This document shows positions 5,432 to 21,646 of a stretch of 64,000 nucleotides of DNA, one piece after another. Location of the stretch: contig NZ_JBALEA010000089.1 in NCBI RefSeq assembly GCF_036917135.1, positions 47,974 to 111,973 on the forward strand. The letters run 5' to 3'. The notes below the pieces were generated by a model, which had not been told where the DNA came from, ran no database searches, and saw only the letters and a list, made by a program, of their open reading frames with translations. Source of the DNA: Nostoc sp. Its GTDB lineage: Bacteria > Cyanobacteriota > Cyanobacteriia > Cyanobacteriales > Nostocaceae. Made by a program: the position numbers and the translations under genes. Every line of letters starts with the position of its first letter. Within the stretch, counting starts at the first letter, position 1.

Positions 5432-5468
5432 TAAGAGTCTTATACATCTTCCAAAATTTAGACTAAAA

Positions 5469-6428
5469 TCAGCTAGCAGTTTTTTTCGCTTCAATCATTC
5501 CGAGTGTGGGAACTTTAACATCCCAAGCTAAACCTAATACTTCCAGAGTGTGGATTAACCAGTACCCTAAATCAACTTGCCACCATTGCAACCCAAACTT
5601 TGCCGAGTTAGGAAAAGCATGATGATTATTATGCCATGCTTCTCCTCCTGTAGGAATTGCCAGCCAAACATTATTAGTACTCTGCTCACTACTATTGAAG
5701 GGGCGACTGCCATACAGATGACTAATGGAATTAATAGTCCAAGTTAAATGATGCACTACAAAAATTCGCACAAGTCCTCCCCACAAAAGTCCTTGCCATA
5801 TACCTATCCAAGTACCTGATAAAAGTCCTCCAAGAATAGCTGGAATCAAAAGACCTAAAAAGACCAGAACTAGGTATTGTTGGTTGACTTTTTTTATCAC
5901 AGGGTCTTGCAGCAAATCCTTCGCAAACACTGTAGAATTTGTGATTTCGCAGTTAAGCATCCAACCAATATGGCTATACCATATTCCGTTTAACCTTCCC
6001 CAAAATCCTCCTTGGTGAAGGTTGGGTGAATGAGTATCTCCTATCTGGTCACTGTATTGATGATGGCGCCTATGATTGCTCACCCAATTAATAACAGGTC
6101 CTTGAGCCGCCATAGAACCTAAGATAGCCAAACCAACTCGAACAGATGGGTGGGTTTTAAAAGTGCAGTGAGATAAAACCCGATGAAAACCTACAGTAAT
6201 CCCTCCGACCATAGTGAGAAACCAGAAGACCAAAAGCAATGCTAATTCCATGAGATTAATTCCAAAATCCCAAGCGAATTTGAGCGCTATCATTGTCCCG
6301 ATCAAAGGAATTATGATTGTGGCTATAGCAAAACGCCTTTGTACTTGTTGTAAGTAATCATTTTGGATTATTATCTTTGTTGTTTTACTTAAAGTCGCCA
6401 AACCATGACTTTGATTGTCTAACTGCAT
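5469..6428 (-). CDS. Membrane-bound fatty acyl desaturase A (delta-9-like fold, JamB-like context)
   Basis: His boxes HRVLSH, HRRHH, HNNHH; 319 aa; paralog of 8038-8997. Confidence 0.92.
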   Translation of the reverse strand: MQLDNQSHGLATLSKTTKIIIQNDYLQQVQRRFAIATIIIPLIGTMIALKFAWDFGINLMELALLLVFWFLTMVGGITVGFHRVLSHCTFKTHPSVRVGLAILGSMAAQGPVINWVSNHRRHHQYSDQIGDTHSPNLHQGGFWGRLNGIWYSHIGWMLNCEITNSTVFAKDLLQDPVIKKVNQQYLVLVFLGLLIPAILGGLLSGTWIGIWQGLLWGGLVRIFVVHHLTWTINSISHLYGSRPFNSSEQSTNNVWLAIPTGGEAWHNNHHAFPNSAKFGLQWWQVDLGYWLIHTLEVLGLAWDVKVPTLGMIEAKKTAS

Positions 6429-6484
6429 TAGGTTCTACATCCTCCTTAAATCTTGTCTTCACTATTAACTTCGTACCATTTGGC

Positions 6485-7720
6485 TTAGGTGTAAATGGTG
6501 AAGGGTGGGATTTGTTCGTTGAGTACCCAGTCACCAACTTCGTGGACTTTGTAAACAACTGGATCGTGCAGAGTATGAGTACGGACATTGCGCCAGAAGC
6601 GATCAAAGCGATATTTTGTCGCAGTAGCACGAGTTCCCATCACTTCAAAAATCTTGCTTGTCACTTCTAATGCCACTCGTGTAGTCAAGACTTTGGCAGT
6701 GCTAATAATAACAGCAGTTTCACCGCGTTCGGTGGCTGTCAGGTCTTCTCCCTTTTCCCAGGCAGATTGGAAGACCGAGTTGACATAATCAACATGGCTG
6801 ATGGTTGAAATCAAACTCACCCAGAGATTACCGTATTGCTCAATAATATAAGGATCTTTAGCTGCCGTGTGGGCAGGTGAAAAAATCCAGGGACGGCTTC
6901 CAGATAGTGTATATTGCTTGCCTTCCTCAAAGGCACCTAGTGCAATTCCCAGATAGAAATTGACAAAGACGGACTGGAAAGCAGGAGTTACCAATGAGGC
7001 AAAGGAGCTAGGCGCATCTTTAGAGTTAGGATTGCCCAGAATCTCATCTCGGTGAATCAAGACATTATTAAAAGTGACGCTACCGCTATCGGTTTGTCGC
7101 TGTCCAATGTAATCCCAATCGTCATTGAGAACCACTCCTTCTCGATGGGTGGGAACAATGGCAATGGGAAGATTCTCCACAGCTTCCCGATGCTTGGCAA
7201 CAATGCTAACGGGAAGATTCTCTACATATCCTCGCGCTGCTGTCACTACAATAATGTCGGAGCCAGTACTGCCTGTGGCAAAGTTTTTAGTACCATTGAG
7301 CCGGAAATTTTTTCCATCTGCTGTTAGCACCAATTTAGGATCTCGCGGATTAACAGCATCACCCCAAAACCAGTTGTTGCGAGTAGTTTCGCTGTAGAAT
7401 CGGGCTTTTTGTTCGGGAGTACCATTTAGTTCAGGGATGACAGAATTGACATAGTGGTATCCCAAAAGTTGACCAAGGGAGCCATCCGCTTTGGCAATTT
7501 CTCGTACAACTTTGAGGGCTGTAACCCAACTTTGACCAAATCCACCATATTGTTCTGGGATCAGGAGTTTAAGCAGACCACTTTCTCGCAGACGATTTAG
7601 TTCGGCAGTCGGACTACCACCTTTGGCATCCCGTTCGACTGCTGTTTTAGCAAACTCCTTTCCTAATGACGCAGCTAGAGCAATGTAGTCTTTTGTTTCT
7701 TGTAAGGTAGATAAAACCAT
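6485..7720 (-). CDS. Acyl-CoA dehydrogenase-fold flavin-dependent monooxygenase, DszC/SfnB type
   Basis: DDWDYIGQRQTDSGSV and C-terminal FDRFWRNVRTHTLHDP motifs typical of DszC/SfnB. Start set at ATG 7720 (GGAG 9 nt upstream); the ORF extends to 7735. Confidence 0.85.
   Translation of the reverse strand: MVLSTLQETKDYIALAASLGKEFAKTAVERDAKGGSPTAELNRLRESGLLKLLIPEQYGGFGQSWVTALKVVREIAKADGSLGQLLGYHYVNSVIPELNGTPEQKARFYSETTRNNWFWGDAVNPRDPKLVLTADGKNFRLNGTKNFATGSTGSDIIVVTAARGYVENLPVSIVAKHREAVENLPIAIVPTHREGVVLNDDWDYIGQRQTDSGSVTFNNVLIHRDEILGNPNSKDAPSSFASLVTPAFQSVFVNFYLGIALGAFEEGKQYTLSGSRPWIFSPAHTAAKDPYIIEQYGNLWVSLISTISHVDYVNSVFQSAWEKGEDLTATERGETAVIISTAKVLTTRVALEVTSKIFEVMGTRATATKYRFDRFWRNVRTHTLHDPVVYKVHEVGDWVLNEQIPPFTIYT
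7136..7225 (-). repeat. In-frame 2 x 45-bp tandem duplication inside the monooxygenase
   Basis: VENLPVSIVAKHREA / VENLPIAIVPTHREG, visible at DNA level. Confidence 0.9.
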
Positions 7721-7751
7721 TTTCAGCATCTCCATAAAATTCGTACTAAAA

Positions 7752-8012
7752 CTATTCGCTTAAATGTTGTGCAAGAGATGCGATCGTCGGGTAATCCCAA
7801 ACTAGCCTTAGCTCTAGCTCTTTTCCTAGCCAATCTGCTAAATCTCCGGTTAAAACCACCGCTACCGATGAATCTAAACCATAACGGGCAAAAGTGGTTT
7901 CTACATTTACTTCTTCGGGTTCGATTTCTAGCAAATCTGCTAGATAAGAAATCAACCATTCTTTGATTTCTGTAGTAGATACTTTCAAAGTTTCAGTTTT
8001 TTGAGAAAGCAT
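7752..8012 (-). CDS. Stand-alone acyl carrier protein
   Basis: YGLDS phosphopantetheine Ser motif, DYPTIASLAQHL C-terminus; GGAGG RBS upstream of ATG 8012; 86 aa. Confidence 0.93.
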   Translation of the reverse strand: MLSQKTETLKVSTTEIKEWLISYLADLLEIEPEEVNVETTFARYGLDSSVAVVLTGDLADWLGKELELRLVWDYPTIASLAQHLSE

Positions 8013-8037
8013 ACATCCTCCAAAATTTAGACTAAAA

Positions 8038-8997
8038 TCAGCTAGCAGTTTTTTTCGCTTCAATCATTCCGAGTGTGGGAACTTTAACATCCCAAGCTAA
8101 ACCTAATACTTCCAGAGTGCGGATTAACCAGTACCCTAAATCAACTTGCCACCATTGCAACCCAAACTTTGCTGAGTTAGGAAAAGCATGATGATTGTTA
8201 TGCCATCCTTCTCCTCCTGTAGAAATTGCCAGCCAAACATTATTAGTACTCTGTTCACTAGTATTCAAAGGGCGACTACCATACAGATGAACAATGGAGT
8301 TAAGACACCAAGTTAAATGATGGACTACAAAAATTCGCACAAGCCCTCCCCACAAAAATCCTTGCCCTACACCTATCCAAGTACCTGATAAAAGTCCTCC
8401 AAGAATAGCTGGAATCAAAAGACCTAAAAAAACGAAAATTAGGTATTGTTGATTGACTTTTTTCATCACAGGGTCTTGCAGCAAATCCTTCGCAAACACT
8501 GTAGTATTTGTGATTTCGCCGTTAAGTATCCAGCCAACATGGCTATGCCACATTCCCCTTAACTTTCCCCAAGATTCTCCTTGATAAAGGTTGGGTGAAT
8601 GAGTATCTCCTATCTGGTCGCTATATTGATGATGTCGTCTATGATTGCTCACCCAATTAATCACAGGGCCTTGAGCCGCCATAGAACCCAAGATAGCCAA
8701 AGCAACTCGCACAGATGGGTGGGTCTTAAAAGCACAGTGACATAAAAGCCGATGATTACCTACAGTCACCCCGCCAATCATTGTGAGAAACCAGAAAACC
8801 AAAAGCAGTTCTAATTCCATGAGATTAATTCCAAAATCCCAAGCGAATTTCAGCGCTATCAGTGTCCCGATCAAAGGAATAACGATCGTGGCTGCGGCTA
8901 ACCGCTTTTGTACTGTTTGTAAGTAATCATTTTTGATTGTGATTTTTGCTTCTTTAGTTGAAGTCAACAAAGAAGGATTTTGATTATTTAACTGCAT
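8038..8997 (-). CDS. Membrane-bound fatty acyl desaturase B (delta-9-like fold, JamB-like context)
   Basis: His boxes HRLLCH, HRRHH, HNNHH; 319 aa; directly upstream of the ACP. Confidence 0.92.
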   Translation of the reverse strand: MQLNNQNPSLLTSTKEAKITIKNDYLQTVQKRLAAATIVIPLIGTLIALKFAWDFGINLMELELLLVFWFLTMIGGVTVGNHRLLCHCAFKTHPSVRVALAILGSMAAQGPVINWVSNHRRHHQYSDQIGDTHSPNLYQGESWGKLRGMWHSHVGWILNGEITNTTVFAKDLLQDPVMKKVNQQYLIFVFLGLLIPAILGGLLSGTWIGVGQGFLWGGLVRIFVVHHLTWCLNSIVHLYGSRPLNTSEQSTNNVWLAISTGGEGWHNNHHAFPNSAKFGLQWWQVDLGYWLIRTLEVLGLAWDVKVPTLGMIEAKKTAS

Positions 8998-9029
8998 GAG
9001 CTTTTACATCCTCATTCAATCCTTTAAAA

Positions 9030-10637
9030 TTAGGCTTTTTTACAGAGATATTCATCCAGTTCATCTTCTTCTCCAGCTAAACCTTGCTCGATATCACCAA
9101 TTTTTTCGGCATACTGATTAATCAGACTTTCTACCTGATTAATATCTAGTAAAGTCTGAGCATAGATATTTCCTGTAAGAGCATTAGCTATCTTTGCCTG
9201 AAAATATTGTTGACCCCAATTTTCGACACGTTGTAATTCATCTGTCGGTTCACTTTGATATGACTTTTGTATGCAAGCAACCACAAATGCCCATGCAGCT
9301 ACATCACCCAATTTCTGGGATAATATTTTACTTAATTTCTTATTACTGTTCCCAGAGAGGTTTTTCTTTTTGAGGTAAGAAGCACAAGTTTCAGCCGTCT
9401 GTTGCAATTGTTCGCTGATTTTTGTCGCTCCCAAAAACTCATTAAGAGATGAAAAGACTTGAGGTGTTTGGTATAAAGTTAATAAACCCAAATGCATCTG
9501 TAAAGTTTCAGTTGGCCCCTCAAAAATCCGAAATAAACGAGCATCCCGTAAGATTTGGGGCGCAATATTAGATTCGATATAACCCCGTCCACCTAGTAGC
9601 TGAACTAGATTATCTGCTGCTTGCCACATTAATTCGGGGGCGATAATCTTAGCGACAAGATAAGCTTCTAAAGGAACAGGTTTCTCTTCATCTAGGGATG
9701 TTGCAATGGTTTTCACCAAGCACTCAACTGCACCAATTGCTGCTGTTAAATCACTCAGACGTTGTAAAGTAATCTGTTGATTTATTAGCCGTTCTATACC
9801 AATTGAGCGACGGGTAGCATAACGAAGCATGAGTTGGGCACAATGTTTCATTCCGCCAATACAGGTGGCAGAAATTCCCAATCTCGCTAGTTGCATTGCG
9901 TCCTGGGCTACTTCAAAACCAGAACCAATTTCGCCTAAAACATTTTCATGATTGACTTTTACCTGCTCAAGGTGAATAGTATTCTGAACCATACCTCGCA
10001 TTCCCATCGTCAGAGCTTCAGTACCTTGCCTCAATCCTTGAGCATTTTCGGGAATGGTAAATGCTGTGATTCCCAAAGAGTCGCCTTGTTCATCTACAAC
10101 ATGAGCAAAAATATTGATCGCGCTTGACCAAGATGCAGAACCGCTCCAAATTTTGGTGCCGCTAAGTAACCACCCACCACTTCCATCTGGATGGGCTTCA
10201 GCCTTGATTCCTCTAGGATTAGATCCGGCAGATGGTTCGGTAATGGCAAAGGCTGCTAAATCTCTCCCTTGGGCTAAATTCTGGAGATAGGTTTCTTTAA
10301 TCTCAGGTGTACCATGCTTAAGAATTGGGTAGATTCCGAGAAAATTGTTTACACCAACAAATGAAGCTAAGTTGAGATCAATAGCTGCAAGTTGTTCCAT
10401 CACTTGCAACATATCACTGTAACTTAAGCCAAGACCCCCGCATGATTGAGGCACAATCATTCCCAACAAACCTTTTTTGCCAAAGTCTAGAACGACGTGA
10501 GGAGTTATACACCGTCGCTCGTCCATAAGTCTAGAATTGATTCGTCTTTGGGCATAGTCACGTAACCAATGGATGACTTGCTCTGCACGTTGACGACTTG
10601 AACTTTCTAAAGACTGACTTTGACTATTGAACTGCAT
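9030..10637 (-). CDS. Acyl-CoA/acyl-ACP dehydrogenase
   Basis: AFAITEPSAGSN, LSGTKIWSGS, QLLGGRGY, RIFEGPTE (catalytic Glu position); extended C-terminus. Confidence 0.9.
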   Translation of the reverse strand: MQFNSQSQSLESSSRQRAEQVIHWLRDYAQRRINSRLMDERRCITPHVVLDFGKKGLLGMIVPQSCGGLGLSYSDMLQVMEQLAAIDLNLASFVGVNNFLGIYPILKHGTPEIKETYLQNLAQGRDLAAFAITEPSAGSNPRGIKAEAHPDGSGGWLLSGTKIWSGSASWSSAINIFAHVVDEQGDSLGITAFTIPENAQGLRQGTEALTMGMRGMVQNTIHLEQVKVNHENVLGEIGSGFEVAQDAMQLARLGISATCIGGMKHCAQLMLRYATRRSIGIERLINQQITLQRLSDLTAAIGAVECLVKTIATSLDEEKPVPLEAYLVAKIIAPELMWQAADNLVQLLGGRGYIESNIAPQILRDARLFRIFEGPTETLQMHLGLLTLYQTPQVFSSLNEFLGATKISEQLQQTAETCASYLKKKNLSGNSNKKLSKILSQKLGDVAAWAFVVACIQKSYQSEPTDELQRVENWGQQYFQAKIANALTGNIYAQTLLDINQVESLINQYAEKIGDIEQGLAGEEDELDEYLCKKA

Positions 10638-12489
10638 TAGCTTTTGCGCCCTCCTGAATATTTACTTTTTGAGAATCAGGATTATCTTGCTGCACTTTTA
10701 CTAAGAGTGAGTTGACATCAACTTCCAACTTGTGAAACTGGGCTTGATGCTGAAGAGTTCCACTACAGTGCGCCACCACATTCAAACTGCCATCTAGAAA
10801 CCCACGCCGACAGGCATGACGCTGAATTTTCCCGCTAGATGTCTTGGGAATACTCCCAGGTTTAATTAAAACTGTGGCATACACTTGTAAACCGTGATTA
10901 TCTACAACTGCTTCAGTGATATTGCCGACGACTTCTTGAATATCCAACCGCCTTAAATAGGTTCGTTCTACCTCTTGAACAACAATTAATCGCTGTTGTC
11001 CCTTCTGATCTACAGTGAAAGCTGCTCCACAATGCGATCGCAATGCTGGATGACTTTTTTGCACTGTTAACTCAATATCCTGGGGATAATGATTTTGTCC
11101 TCGGATGATAATCACATCTTTTAGTCGTCCGGTAACAAATAGTTCGCCATCTTGCAAAAATCCCAAGTCACCCGTGCAAAGAAACGGCCCTTCTCCTGTA
11201 TCCCCCAGATAACTTTGAAAAGTTTCCGCAGTTTTTTCTGGTTGGTTCCAATAGCCACCAGCCACAGAAGAACCTGATACCCAAATCTCTCCCACCTTCC
11301 CAGGAGGACACTGAGTTAAAGATTCGCGATCGACAATGACGATTTTTTCATCTAACCAGGTGCGACCACAGCCCACAATTGTTTTAGTTCCTTCCCCAGA
11401 TTCAGCCGCCACCACCTGATTTTCCTCAAGGGCTGCTGCTTCAACTTGGTACAGAATCGGCGAAGCTGTTTTTAAACCTCCAGAAACGAATAAAGTTGCC
11501 TCAGCCATCCCGTAACAGGGATAAAATGCTTCTCGACGGAAACCACAAGGAGCGAAATAGTTAGCAAATAGCTCCATTGTCTCGGCACGGACTGGTTCGG
11601 CTCCATTGAAAGCGACTTCCCAACTGCTTAAATCAAGACTAGAAAGCTGTTCGGGAGTAATCTTGCGAACGCACAAATCGTAAGCAAAATCTGGCCCGCC
11701 GCTAGTAGTGGCTTTGTAACGAGAAATAGCTTGCAACCAGGAAAAAGGCTTTTGCAGGAAAGCTACTGGTGACATCAAAATAGACGGGATACCCAAATAT
11801 AGAGGCTGCAAAACGTTCCCAATCAGACCCATATCGTGGAATAAGGGTAACCAACCGACAAAAATTGTTTTATCTGTATGTCCGAAACCCATTCTGATGG
11901 ATCTCTGGTTGCACAGTAAATTTCCATGAGTGATCATCACTCCCTTCGGCGTTCCCGTAGAGCCTGAAGTGTATTGCAGAAATGCCAGAGTGTCTCTCTC
12001 TAGTCTTGGTTTTTGCCAATCTGAACTGAGATTGCTGTCAATGCAATCAGTATTTAACCAGCGCATAGTTGCCAATTCTGGATTTTCGACCGTTAACAAA
12101 GATTTTGTGGTCAAGACTATCTTGGCTTGGGCATCTTTAGCGATCGCCTGCAACCTGAGCAAGTTCATATTGGCTCGGGGTGGATAAGCGGGAACGGCGA
12201 TAACACCCGCATATAAACAGCCAAAGAAGGCGCTAATGAATTCTAATCCCGGTGGATACAACAGCAAAGCCCGTTCGCCAGGAGATACTAGAGACTGAAG
12301 ATGGGTAGCGAGCGATCGCGCTTGCAGGTCTAATTCTCCATAAGTCAGGCTGTTTTCTTCAGTTTCTCCATCTTTGAGAAATATATAAGCCCTTTGCTGA
12401 GGCTGATTTTTAGCTCTGTAGCTGAGTAATTCTATTAAATTTGAAAATTTGTCAAGAGGGTTTTGGAGATCAGCCAAACAAATAGTCAT
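10624..12489 (-). CDS. Fatty acyl-AMP ligase (FAAL)
   Basis: LQYTSGSTGTPKGV, WLPLFHDMGLIG, YPCYGMAEATL followed by the FAAL-type insertion, GRLKDVIIIRG, PKTSSGKIQR. Confidence 0.93.
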   Translation of the reverse strand: MTICLADLQNPLDKFSNLIELLSYRAKNQPQQRAYIFLKDGETEENSLTYGELDLQARSLATHLQSLVSPGERALLLYPPGLEFISAFFGCLYAGVIAVPAYPPRANMNLLRLQAIAKDAQAKIVLTTKSLLTVENPELATMRWLNTDCIDSNLSSDWQKPRLERDTLAFLQYTSGSTGTPKGVMITHGNLLCNQRSIRMGFGHTDKTIFVGWLPLFHDMGLIGNVLQPLYLGIPSILMSPVAFLQKPFSWLQAISRYKATTSGGPDFAYDLCVRKITPEQLSSLDLSSWEVAFNGAEPVRAETMELFANYFAPCGFRREAFYPCYGMAEATLFVSGGLKTASPILYQVEAAALEENQVVAAESGEGTKTIVGCGRTWLDEKIVIVDRESLTQCPPGKVGEIWVSGSSVAGGYWNQPEKTAETFQSYLGDTGEGPFLCTGDLGFLQDGELFVTGRLKDVIIIRGQNHYPQDIELTVQKSHPALRSHCGAAFTVDQKGQQRLIVVQEVERTYLRRLDIQEVVGNITEAVVDNHGLQVYATVLIKPGSIPKTSSGKIQRHACRRGFLDGSLNVVAHCSGTLQHQAQFHKLEVDVNSLLVKVQQDNPDSQKVNIQEGAKANAVQ

Positions 12490-12621: not shown

Positions 12622-13986
12622 TTATCGAATGATGCCTAATTCACGATCCAATTTTTGGAAAACGTGAATAAATGTATCTAAATCTTCACGTGTATGGGTT
12701 GCCATGACACTGATTCGGAGTCTTTGGGCATTGAGGGGAACAGCAGGGTACTCGACCGAATTCACAAAGATGCCTTCTTGGTGAAATCTCCAGGCAAGAG
12801 TGCGAATTTCGACTTCAGACGGGATTCTCACTGGTATAATTGCAGAGTCGCTGCTGGTTTGGAATCCTGCCGCTTGCAGTTGCTGCAATAAGTAAGTGCT
12901 ATTGGCTCGAAGTTGACTAACACGCTCCGGCTCCCGCTCAATGATATCTAGACCTGCCAAGATAGCCGCAACAACAGGAGCAGGCAAAGATGCCGAGAAC
13001 ATATAAGACCGAGCAAAGAAGCGCAGATACTCGATTACCTCACGACTGGCAGCGATGAAGCCGCCTGTGACACCCAATGCCTTACTGAAAGTCCCCATCG
13101 TGACATCAATTCGACCTTTCAGACCAAAGTGTTCATCAGTGCCACCGCCCTTTTTACCCATAACACCAGTGCCGTGTGCATCATCCACGACAAGAATAGC
13201 CCCGTAATCGTCGCAAAGTTCACGAATTGCTGGGAGTGCAGCTAAATCGCCATCCATCGAATATACGCCTTCTATAGCCACATAGATTAATCGATTTGAT
13301 GCTCCTCCAACTTGCTTGCATTTGATCAGACGCTGTTCGAGGTCATCACAATCATTATGCTTGAAGCTAAAAGCGCGAACGCTGGAACCCATAGAGACAA
13401 GCTTAATGGCATCATAAAGACTGGCATGGCTTAACTCGTCGCAGATTAAAACATCATCATCACGTAACAGACCATTAACCCACCCTAACTGTGCCTGAAA
13501 TCCACTGGCAAAAAGGAGAGCATCTTCTGCGCCTTTGAACTGGGCTATACGAGCTTCAAGTTGGCGATGGAGGCTACTCATGCCATTGAGTAGAGGTGGT
13601 CCACCCATACCAACACCAAATTCTTCAATAGCTCGTTTTGCTGCTTCTCGAACATAGGGATGGGTGGTCAATCCCAGGTAGTTATTTGATCCGAACATCA
13701 GCATTGACCTGATTTCACCAGTGAGCGGATCTTTAATCAGAGTTCGATTTTCAATCGGCCCAACGACCTCACGAGGAAAATAGGTGAGCATACAGGCATT
13801 GGGACCGATAGAGGCATTTGGTGTATGCAACCAATTAGAGCAAGGTTTCACGCGCTCCGCTAAGGATGAACCAATCGTTGGGAAAAAATCTTTGAAGGAA
13901 AAATTCTCGGCATGGCTGCTGGTATCCGGTGCAACCCATATATTCCTAACATCTTCTGGGAATTTATTAGTCTGTTTACTTAACAT
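12622..13986 (-). CDS. PLP-dependent alpha-oxoamine synthase (serine palmitoyltransferase/BioF/KBL family)
   Basis: MFGSNNYLGL, SHASL, EGVYSMDGD, DDAHG, GTFSKALG (Schiff-base Lys); long N-terminal extension. Confidence 0.92.
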   Translation of the reverse strand: MLSKQTNKFPEDVRNIWVAPDTSSHAENFSFKDFFPTIGSSLAERVKPCSNWLHTPNASIGPNACMLTYFPREVVGPIENRTLIKDPLTGEIRSMLMFGSNNYLGLTTHPYVREAAKRAIEEFGVGMGGPPLLNGMSSLHRQLEARIAQFKGAEDALLFASGFQAQLGWVNGLLRDDDVLICDELSHASLYDAIKLVSMGSSVRAFSFKHNDCDDLEQRLIKCKQVGGASNRLIYVAIEGVYSMDGDLAALPAIRELCDDYGAILVVDDAHGTGVMGKKGGGTDEHFGLKGRIDVTMGTFSKALGVTGGFIAASREVIEYLRFFARSYMFSASLPAPVVAAILAGLDIIEREPERVSQLRANSTYLLQQLQAAGFQTSSDSAIIPVRIPSEVEIRTLAWRFHQEGIFVNSVEYPAVPLNAQRLRISVMATHTREDLDTFIHVFQKLDRELGIIR

Positions 13987-14052: not shown

Positions 14053-14175
14053 GGGACTTCCAAGAAATAAATTATTCATCTTGTGGGGTGGGCATCCTGC
14101 CCGCCCTGAATATAGGACGGGTGAGGACACCCATCCCACAAGAAAATTTGGGATGTTTTTTTATTTGGAAGTCCC
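14053..14175. mobile_element. MITE-like element, 123 bp, same ends as 5310-5431 but in opposite orientation, TTA target duplication
   Basis: gggacttccaagaaataaatt ... ttttttatttggaagtccc; TTA at 14050-14052 and 14176-14178. Confidence 0.8.
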
Positions 14176-20596: not shown

Positions 20597-21646
20597 CTAC
20601 TCAACAGATTGATACAATTTCATCACCTGGGTAAGCGCTAACCTAGACTCAACGCCTAGTGTGAGGGTGGATGTATGACCACGCGATAGATGATCTGCGG
20701 CAGCACAGCCAATCATGGCGGCGTTATCGGTACAGAATTTGAGAGGTGGGAATAGGACGCGTAAGTTATGTTTAACGGCGGCGGCTTGGAGGTTTTTTCT
20801 CAACCCGCTATTAGCTGCTACGCCGCCACCAATGGCAATTGTGTCTAAACGATAGTCTAGGGCACAGGCGATCGCTCTTTTGGTTAGCGATCGCGCTACA
20901 GTATCCTGAAAACTAGCTGCGACATCTGCCACTGGCACTTGTCCACCATCTTTTTCTAACTGCTGCACTAAACGCAATACAGCCGTTTTTAATCCGCTAA
21001 AACTCGTATCATAACGATGAACCCCCCCGCCCGGTACAGAAACTCTTCCTTCTGGTAGGGCAAAGGCTTGAGGATTCCCCTGTTCTGCCAACTTGTCAAT
21101 CACTGGACCACCGGGATAACCCAGCTTTAACAATCGCGCCACTTTATCAAAGGCTTCACCCGCAGCATCATCACGGGTTTGACCCAGGGTTTCGTAATTA
21201 CCACAATCTTTGACATAAATCAAGCTTGTATGTCCGCCTGAAACCAGTAAGCTAAGGAAAGGGGGATTTAAAGTTGATTCACTCAAGTAAGTTGCGTAAA
21301 TGTGACCTTCCAGGTGATGAACTCCCAAAAATGGCTTGTTGTGTACCATTGCCAGGGTTTTGGCAGCAGTTAACCCCACCAATAGCGCTCCTACAAGTCC
21401 AGGGGCACAGGTGGCAGCAATTGCGTCAATTTTTCCCCAGTCTAGTTGGGCTTGTTCTAAGGCTTGTGCGATCGCAACATTGATCGTTTCCAAGTGCTGG
21501 CGAGATGCTACTTCTGGCACTACCCCGCCATACTGCTGATGGACTAGAATTTGCGAGGCGACGACACTGCTGCAAACTTTACGATTGTTAACAATTGCGA
21601 CGGCAGTTTCATCACAGCTGGTTTCTATTGCTAAAACGGTTGTCAT
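20597..21646 (-). CDS. tsaD: tRNA t6A threonylcarbamoyltransferase
   Basis: [54 protein letters not shown]. Confidence 0.97.

Follow-up and report, generated by a model that had tools for sequence, protein, structure and literature searches.

A gene-start segment shared by unrelated enzymes of a Nostoc lipid gene cluster, probably spread from a fatty acyl-AMP ligase/desaturase junction

Why should genes for enzymes with unrelated folds begin with the same ribosome-binding region and the same first codons? The question is raised by a gene cluster in a 64,000-nucleotide stretch of Nostoc sp. DNA (contig NZ_JBALEA010000089.1, positions 47,974 to 111,973; hereafter the window, with positions counted from its first letter). 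Here the genes for an oxoamine synthase (AONS), a fatty acyl-AMP ligase (FAAL), a first protein of the acyl-CoA dehydrogenase fold (ACAD1), desaturase B (DesB), an acyl carrier protein (ACP), a second ACAD-fold protein (ACAD2) and desaturase A (DesA) follow one another in this order on the minus strand, the block being bordered by prmC and the Sua5/TsaC gene. An initial annotation of the window had noticed a common start segment, here called the leader, on ACAD1, DesB and DesA, and had offered three accounts of it: one translation-initiation cassette copied onto incoming genes, an N-terminal docking or targeting tag, or a shared RNA control site. The answer that emerges from the comparisons below is that a short segment from the junction of a FAAL gene and a JamB-like desaturase gene was probably spread by duplication, deletion-fusion or gene conversion, and was kept mainly as a translation start region.

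The likeness of the three start regions stands far above the level of the rest of the genome. Over positions -16 to +22 relative to the start codon, ACAD1 and DesB agree at 31 of 38 nucleotides, the very count given in the initial annotation, and DesA carries the third version claimed there, with 29/38 to ACAD1 and 32/38 to DesB. Over -20 to +48, the same pairs agree at 46/68 (ACAD1/DesB), 45/68 (ACAD1/DesA) and 51/68 (DesA/DesB). The remaining gene pairs of the cluster reach 9-17/38. In a crude start set of 4,782 ATG starts (open reading frames of at least 120 aa in the 7.1-Mb genome), the background mean is 12.1/38 (standard deviation 2.6) and the top unrelated start attains 22/38, so such likeness is not common among start regions picked at random from this genome. 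It is hardly credible that the likeness arose by chance, or that the genes converged independently on one favourable start sequence because the genome is AT-rich and its codon bias strong: the codons involved (CAG, TTA, AAT, CAA and AGT) are indeed common at 42% G+C, but the genome-wide comparison refutes this account, and the dead copies and flanking relics described below show descent.

The tract has definite limits. The best ungapped segment runs from -16 to +28 for ACAD1/DesB (36/45) and from -21 to +22 for ACAD1/DesA (34/44); likeness beyond +28 is weak, extends to about +41, and is at background level from about +42. The shared tract of about 50-70 nt comprises a GAGG, a spacer ending in AAAAGCTN, the ATG and about 10-13 codons, and it includes about 20 untranslated bases. 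The whole genome holds four copies, every one at a gene start, which does not fit a dispersed repeat or miniature inverted-repeat transposable element (MITE). The fourth, a decayed copy outside the window (contig C82 of the same genome, ATG at 20830), matches DesB at 31/38; it fell outside the start set, its open reading frame being 41 aa long. We read the three start regions of the cluster as copies by descent of one short DNA segment.

The N-terminal peptides MQFNSQSQSL (ACAD1), MQLNNQNPSL (DesB) and MQLDNQSHGL (DesA) had been called correctly. The three starts are unambiguous, with an in-frame stop codon just upstream of each and N-termini common to homologues. Pfam bears out that the folds are unrelated: ACAD1 has three Acyl-CoA_dh domains and the desaturases an FA_desaturase domain, the translation of which displays the three histidine boxes HRLLCH, HRRHH and HNNHH. 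The further claim that the motif also precedes the ACP holds only in part. The ACP start (8020) does have GAGGATGTA upstream, and GAGGATGT occurs within -20 to +4 at only 6 of the 4,782 starts; half of the ACP orthologues, however, read GGAGGATCT, and we treat the ACP resemblance as weak for this reason.

The placement of the copies points to the kind of segment involved. The FAAL stop codon TAG occupies +11 to +13 of ACAD1, giving a 14-nt gene overlap in which the first 14 coding nucleotides of the leader lie within the end of the FAAL gene, and the 3' tail of the FAAL gene, which belongs to no domain, holds the ACAD1 ribosome-binding site and forms part of the copied junction. The second copy, at DesB, sits in the 32-nt spacer 3' of the ACAD1 stop.

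The leader is kept in all orthologous islands examined. Six congeneric genomes carry an island at this one prmC/sua5 site, and relatives have additional copies. Its smallest form is AONS-FAAL-ACAD1-desaturase-ACP, and larger forms add ACAD2, a second desaturase, or a second ACP and a third desaturase. Among the islands, all ACAD1 orthologues have a MQFNSQSQSL-type start, and the first-desaturase orthologues all start MQLNNQ.PSL. In a desaturase protein tree built without the first 20 residues (the window, L020-L025, L153 and L155), first and second copies cluster by lineage and not by position, which suggests repeated duplication or gene conversion of the desaturase copies.

The wider families suggest which gene was the native owner of the start. 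The motif M.{0,3}Q[LIVMF][DN] is present in 40 of 106 desaturase homologues (54-65% identity), in 0 of 96 ACAD homologues at 73% identity or less, and in 32 of the 4,782 open reading frames of the genome itself. This register-free count replaced a position-specific profile of desaturase N-termini; scoring ACADs with that profile had low power, as DesB itself ranked 321 of 4,782, the homologue N-termini being out of register. These desaturase homologues, drawn from many genera, among them Moorena, Scytonema, Tolypothrix and Symploca, very frequently start with MQLD or MQLN, sometimes after 1-3 extra residues. Judged by this distribution, the MQL[DN] start appears native to JamB-like desaturases and foreign to ACADs. 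A profile search of the genome contigs with the desaturase alignment gave mostly non-cyanobacterial desaturases among the matches listed.

On the ACAD side, the leader follows the company of a desaturase. With three ACAD domains and a C-terminal extension of about 150 aa in its 535 aa, ACAD1 is predicted to be of the NocC type, and its identity to a Nodularia sp. HBU26 protein that bears the name NocC is 81%; the NocC of Nodularia sp. LEGE 06071 has been shown to dehydrogenate acyl-ACP (PMC9486936). The leader, or a diverged homologue of it, is confined to ACAD orthologues of at least 73% identity (Nostoc, Nodularia, Sphaerospermopsis, a metagenome contig and Moorea), and the orthologues of Crocosphaera and Calothrix (65-67%) have different starts. 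Every ACAD with a leader has, or once had, a JamB-type desaturase as its immediate downstream neighbour: the Moorea locus reads FAAL-ACAD-Des-Des-ACP, and the Crocosphaera locus, FAAL-ACAD-ACP-polyketide synthase (PKS), has neither desaturase nor leader. Both are likewise missing from the Calothrix orthologue. ACAD homologues of about 50% identity (L026, L029-L036) are fused to a FAAL in single frames of about 1,180-1,340 aa, with an ACP next in most loci. Plain FAAL-desaturase-ACP cassettes with one to four desaturases are widespread in cyanobacteria, their FAALs being 55-66% identical. An overlapping junction is not a general property of these plain cassettes; in the loci examined, the FAAL stop and the desaturase start lie apart, without overlap.

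The leader also extends beyond the islands. A scan of 389 genomes of the family with the coding pattern (22 nt, at most 1 mismatch) returned about 47 matches in 29 genomes against 3 control matches, and one with the untranslated part plus ATGCARTT returned matches in 62 of 389 genomes and 17 of 68 genera, the control count being 3 here too. Apart from the island genes, most true matches head a third, unrelated gene. Its product of about 1,400 aa combines an AMP-binding_C-like piece (residues 22-94), a FAAL-like adenylation domain, a ketoreductase (KR) and a PP-binding domain; a nonribosomal peptide synthetase (NRPS) module comes next, in peptide clusters of many Nostocales. Its architecture suggests a likeness to AerA/SpuA-type loading modules. 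The 30 loci fetched in the second scan comprise 15 with the third-family gene (11 open to the locus end, 4 interrupted), two island desaturases and 13 chance-like matches. Third-family orthologues of at least 63% identity across Nostocales start MQLDN[HY]SQ.L with GGATATAAAAGCTA upstream; more distant homologues differ.

When the four leader classes (ACAD1, first desaturase, second desaturase and third family) are compared by consensus, they agree at 73-92% over -30 to +30 and at 50-77% over +31 to +48. In the third family the shared flank reaches about -30, extending to -62 in some genomes. In several genomes, its non-coding 5' flank still resembles the coding FAAL tail of the island, at 28/34 in L215 (0 of 2,000 shuffles as high), with no shuffle of 2,000 as high in L196 and with p = 0.0005 in L209. 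It is therefore the junction of FAAL tail and gene start that moved, by ordinary rearrangement. The decayed copy on C82 belongs here as well: around 20770-21250 the leader and 41 codons are followed by stop codons and then by a type I PKS gene, the remains of a third-gene start.

Dead copies record where the junction once stood. On a Nodularia-type noc/cly contig (L037, 9606-9753), a dead desaturase leader, its ATG changed to ATA, lies between the NocC stop and the ACP gene (clyB), with an alignment score of 26-30 against 9-10 ± 1.6 for shuffles. As this dead desaturase leader follows NocC, it implies that the FAAL-ACAD-ACP trio of noc/cly once had a desaturase. In G493 (L188, G493:C1, 7700-12430), the stop of a 78% identical FAAL overlaps a dead DesB-type leader, and an ACP comes next, within the rearranged order ACP-Des-Des-FAAL-(dead leader)-ACP. 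In G027 (L024, G027:C64, 13050-13390), ACAD2 is followed by an inserted element of about 100 nt and then by a DesA leader with about 30 codons, including an in-frame stop, the remainder of DesA being deleted. Two metagenome contigs (L153 and L154) keep the leader on an internally deleted ACAD1, of which residues 241-291 and 471-534 remain (L153, 5720-6090), in an AONS-FAAL-(remnant)-Des-ACP-ACAD2-Des variant of the island. In the window itself, the 28 nt 3' of DesA repeat those 3' of DesB and include a dead ACP ribosome-binding site and start, at a site where a relative (L021) has an intact second ACP; this shows that the duplicated unit was the desaturase together with the 5' end of the ACP gene. 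These clusters evidently recombine readily. That so many relics seem to have kept the leader is in part a matter of ascertainment, since a gene deleted completely leaves no visible trace.

What has kept the copies alike can be judged from per-site pairwise identity among the 15 third-family genes, which come from several genera. Identity is 0.33-0.47 upstream of -18, 0.75 at -17 to -1 and 0.92 in codons 1-4, the maximum falling at -17 to +12. In codons 5-16, codon positions 1 and 2 stand at 0.71 and 0.68 against 0.77 and 0.88 in the gene body, and third positions at 0.78 against 0.70. ACAD1 and the desaturases present the same pattern. The ribosome contacts the mRNA around the start codon at initiation, and the conserved core coincides with that region. 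Because it does so, and because the peptide is comparatively free to vary, we infer that the copies have been kept mainly as a translation start region.

The same figures bear on the possibility that the shared peptide, MQ[LF][DN].Q...L, is a functional tag, whether an ACP/FAAL docking motif or a targeting or degradation signal, with selection acting on the peptide. The motif is retained on many JamB-like desaturases and on essentially all third-family orthologues of at least 63% identity. By family assignment, the leader-bearing island enzymes are predicted to act on carrier-bound acyl chains, and the tract precedes the folded domains (Pfam ACAD begins at residue 19, AMP-binding_C at residue 22). 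Even so, codons 5-16 are less conserved than the bodies at amino-acid-changing positions in all three families, contrary to what a docking peptide would show, while third positions are equally or more conserved. The N-termini of ACAD orthologues vary (MQFNSQSQSL, MHCNSQIQSK, MLVNKQIQTS, MAIDSPSQSL), and the likeness reaches into the untranslated bases. Pfam assigns no docking-domain family to the N-termini of ACAD1, the desaturases or the third-family protein. Residues 1-16 are rich in Q, N, S and T, without a hydrophobic stretch or basic n-region, and carry no Sec, Tat or lipoprotein signal-peptide features. The third family, moreover, keeps the leader where the upstream FAAL is a non-coding relic. 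The docking or targeting tag of the initial annotation thus finds no support, and we regard selection on the peptide as improbable.

A cis-acting RNA control site, such as a small-RNA target or an operator for an RNA-binding protein that co-regulates lipid and lipopeptide genes, would agree with a most conserved core (-17 to +12) placed around the mRNA start of three unrelated families in many genera, with third codon positions slightly more conserved in the tract than in gene bodies, and with the unusually long distance between GGAGG and ATG. That core is, however, the ordinary region of ribosome contact, which plain initiation explains, and there is no known candidate partner. The leaders have no Rfam match at E ≤ 1; they fold no better than shuffles (z = -0.38, -1.51 and +0.44), with structures that differ between copies; and a consensus scan of the minus strand gave no promoter-like site or leaderless start at them. 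A structured RNA is thereby unsupported, a linear binding site being what could still be accommodated, and we give RNA control little likelihood.

The history that we consider probable starts from the junction of a FAAL 3' tail with the start of a JamB-like desaturase, a segment that would have contained the ribosome-binding site, the spacer, ATG CAG TTA GAT/AAT and about 10-16 further codons. FAAL-ACAD-ACP and FAAL-desaturase-ACP cassettes may have been joined to give a FAAL-ACAD-desaturase-ACP core; the core looks like such a merger because both fused FAAL-ACAD(-ACP) and plain FAAL-desaturase-ACP cassette types exist. At this merger, the junction would have come to head the ACAD gene too, whether through duplication, an in-frame deletion-fusion or gene conversion that started in the homologous FAAL tails. 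A later tandem duplication of the desaturase(+ACP) unit would have yielded DesA, and elsewhere the junction with its FAAL-tail relic may have been fused before an unrelated adenylation-ketoreductase-carrier loading protein in the ancestor of a Nostocales clade. The order of these events and the exact recombination mechanism are reconstructed from the arrangements seen today. The copies would persist because bases of about -17 to +12 serve as a translation start region and the added polar peptide is harmless; once repeated, they would probably provide the breakpoints of later gene gains and losses. Of the initial idea of an initiation cassette copied onto incoming genes, the copying survives: the DNA is homologous, untranslated bases included, conserved, present on a third family and left behind as dead relics. 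The notion of a cassette with a dedicated mechanism gives way to ordinary rearrangement of a junction.

Several observations weigh against this history. The direction of transfer, from the desaturase junction to ACAD and the third family, is inferred from distribution, the tract being too short for a tree. Upstream of DesB, the match to a FAAL-tail relic (p = 0.01-0.56) falls short of significance in most genomes, and no such relic is claimed. The Moorea ACAD has +11 to +60 in common with Nostoc ACAD1 but differs at +4 to +10, and the leader of the Moorea desaturase is dissimilar; therefore, either the tract has decayed there or later gene conversion has homogenized the Nostocales copies. With regard to retention for initiation, an in-frame deletion in one relative (G016; L025, G016:C1) has taken 18 nt out of the FAAL tail, directly before the ACAD1 start at locus position 9010. 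The deletion removes the ACAD1 ribosome-binding site, and the FAAL/ACAD1 overlap is kept with both genes intact; since they are intact without that site, ACAD1 in this genome probably depends on coupling to FAAL translation. At 12 nt, the distance from GGAGG to the ATG is on the long side for a classical ribosome-binding site. Finally, identity between leader classes that must be of great age still stands at 75-88%, which may need a constraint stronger than that on a generic start. It is conceivable, though in our judgment unlikely, that the leader is a selected portable start module for at least three unrelated Nostocales lipid and lipopeptide enzyme families, serving common translational control or as a preferred recombination joint.

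The coordinates of the features discussed are collected in Table 1.

Table 1. Genes, leader copies and relics of the cluster, in window positions
Feature	Position	Strand	Basis
Oxoamine synthase (AONS)	13986..12622	minus	
FAAL, fatty acyl-AMP ligase, 621 aa	10624..12489	minus	Pfam AMP-binding
ACAD1, 535 aa, predicted NocC-type acyl-ACP dehydrogenase, leader recipient	9030..10637	minus	Pfam, identity to NocC
Desaturase B (DesB), 319 aa, JamB-like membrane fatty-acid desaturase	8038..8997	minus	Pfam FA_desaturase
ACP, acyl carrier protein, 86 aa	7752..8012	minus	Pfam PP-binding
ACAD2, second ACAD-fold flavoenzyme, 416 aa, own unrelated start region	6485..7735	minus	
Desaturase A (DesA), 319 aa, DesB paralogue, 84% identical	5469..6428	minus	
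Leader copy 1, about -21..+45, ACAD1 start, ATG 10637	10593..10658	minus	Similarity; kept in orthologous islands
Leader copy 2, about -21..+45, DesB start, ATG 8997	8953..9018	minus	Similarity; kept in orthologues
Leader copy 3, about -27..+45, DesA start, ATG 6428	6384..6455	minus	Similarity
GGAGGATGT before ACP start, short partial likeness to the ribosome-binding part of the leader, weak	8010..8021	minus	
Dead desaturase-to-ACP spacer with ACP ribosome-binding site and start, ATG changed to ATA	5441..5468	minus	

Two further features of the window may be recorded. Within ACAD2, a stretch of about 14 residues is repeated in tandem, VENLPVSIVAKHRE / VENLPIAIVPTHRE (window about 7170-7250, minus strand). 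At 14079-14143, a palindrome matches Rfam mir-2188 on both strands with 36.6 and 26.1 bits against a gathering score of 60; it is probably the hairpin of a MITE-like element and not a microRNA.

Among known systems, the island is close in its parts to the JamABC-type cassette of cyanobacterial alkyne biosynthesis and bacterial polyyne clusters, in which a FAAL, a JamB-like desaturase and an ACP likewise share one operon. The island encodes a FAAL, a membrane desaturase with three histidine boxes and an ACP together, and the desaturase N-terminus MQLD is common to the JamB family and the island desaturases. The island differs in that ACAD1, bearing the desaturase-type start, lies between FAAL and desaturase. 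The noc/cly locus with NocC, ClyA and ClyB (PMC9486936, PMC5333925) has the same 14-nt FAAL-ACAD overlap and the same leader. The Nodularia noc/cly-type locus reads FAAL-NocC-ACP-halogenase-PKS, and the noc/cly loci examined have no desaturase; the island, in contrast to them, encodes an oxoamine synthase but lacks both halogenase and PKS. Overlapping stop and start codons, as in translational coupling, are seen here in the FAAL stop inside ACAD1, and the relative without the ribosome-binding site keeps the overlap. Coupling may explain the translation of ACAD1, but not the sequence it shares with the desaturases and with a first-in-operon gene elsewhere. The N-terminal docking domains of PKS and NRPS proteins (e.g., TubC_N) are also short N-terminal sequences on differing pathway proteins, and a true TubC_N domain is present on the next protein of the third-family operon; the shared part of the leader, in contrast, amounts to 10-16 polar residues that are poorly conserved as a peptide and match no family.

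Chimeric genes formed by 5'-end capture, in-frame deletion-fusion or short-tract gene conversion are known in bacterial genome evolution. The present case likewise has a short 5' segment on non-homologous bodies, sharp boundaries and relics of the donor context in the form of the FAAL tail. It departs from known chimeras in that one junction of about 60-90 nt is found on three unrelated enzyme families in many genera, at 75-88% identity between families. No report of such a multi-family junction turned up in the literature looked at for other questions, no search having been aimed at it. As we read it, the event is one of 5'-end capture or junction duplication, and what is notable about it is the same start segment on three unrelated families across many Nostocales.

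The presence of the leader on the third family across many relatives means, therefore, that gene starts are reused when clusters rearrange. The copies document the rebuilding of biosynthetic operons in a concrete and datable form, with a start region and its first codons apparently carried onto other genes. Together with the dead relics, they record genes that were once present, such as the lost desaturase behind NocC in the nocuolin/chlorosphaerolactylate-type locus. For annotation, the case means that identical N-termini on unrelated proteins are here real and not an error of start calling. For engineering, the tract offers a start module of natural origin that seems well tolerated and could be used to express foreign enzymes in Nostocales. 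Should it carry regulation as well, several natural-product pathways of these cyanobacteria would be linked in their control.

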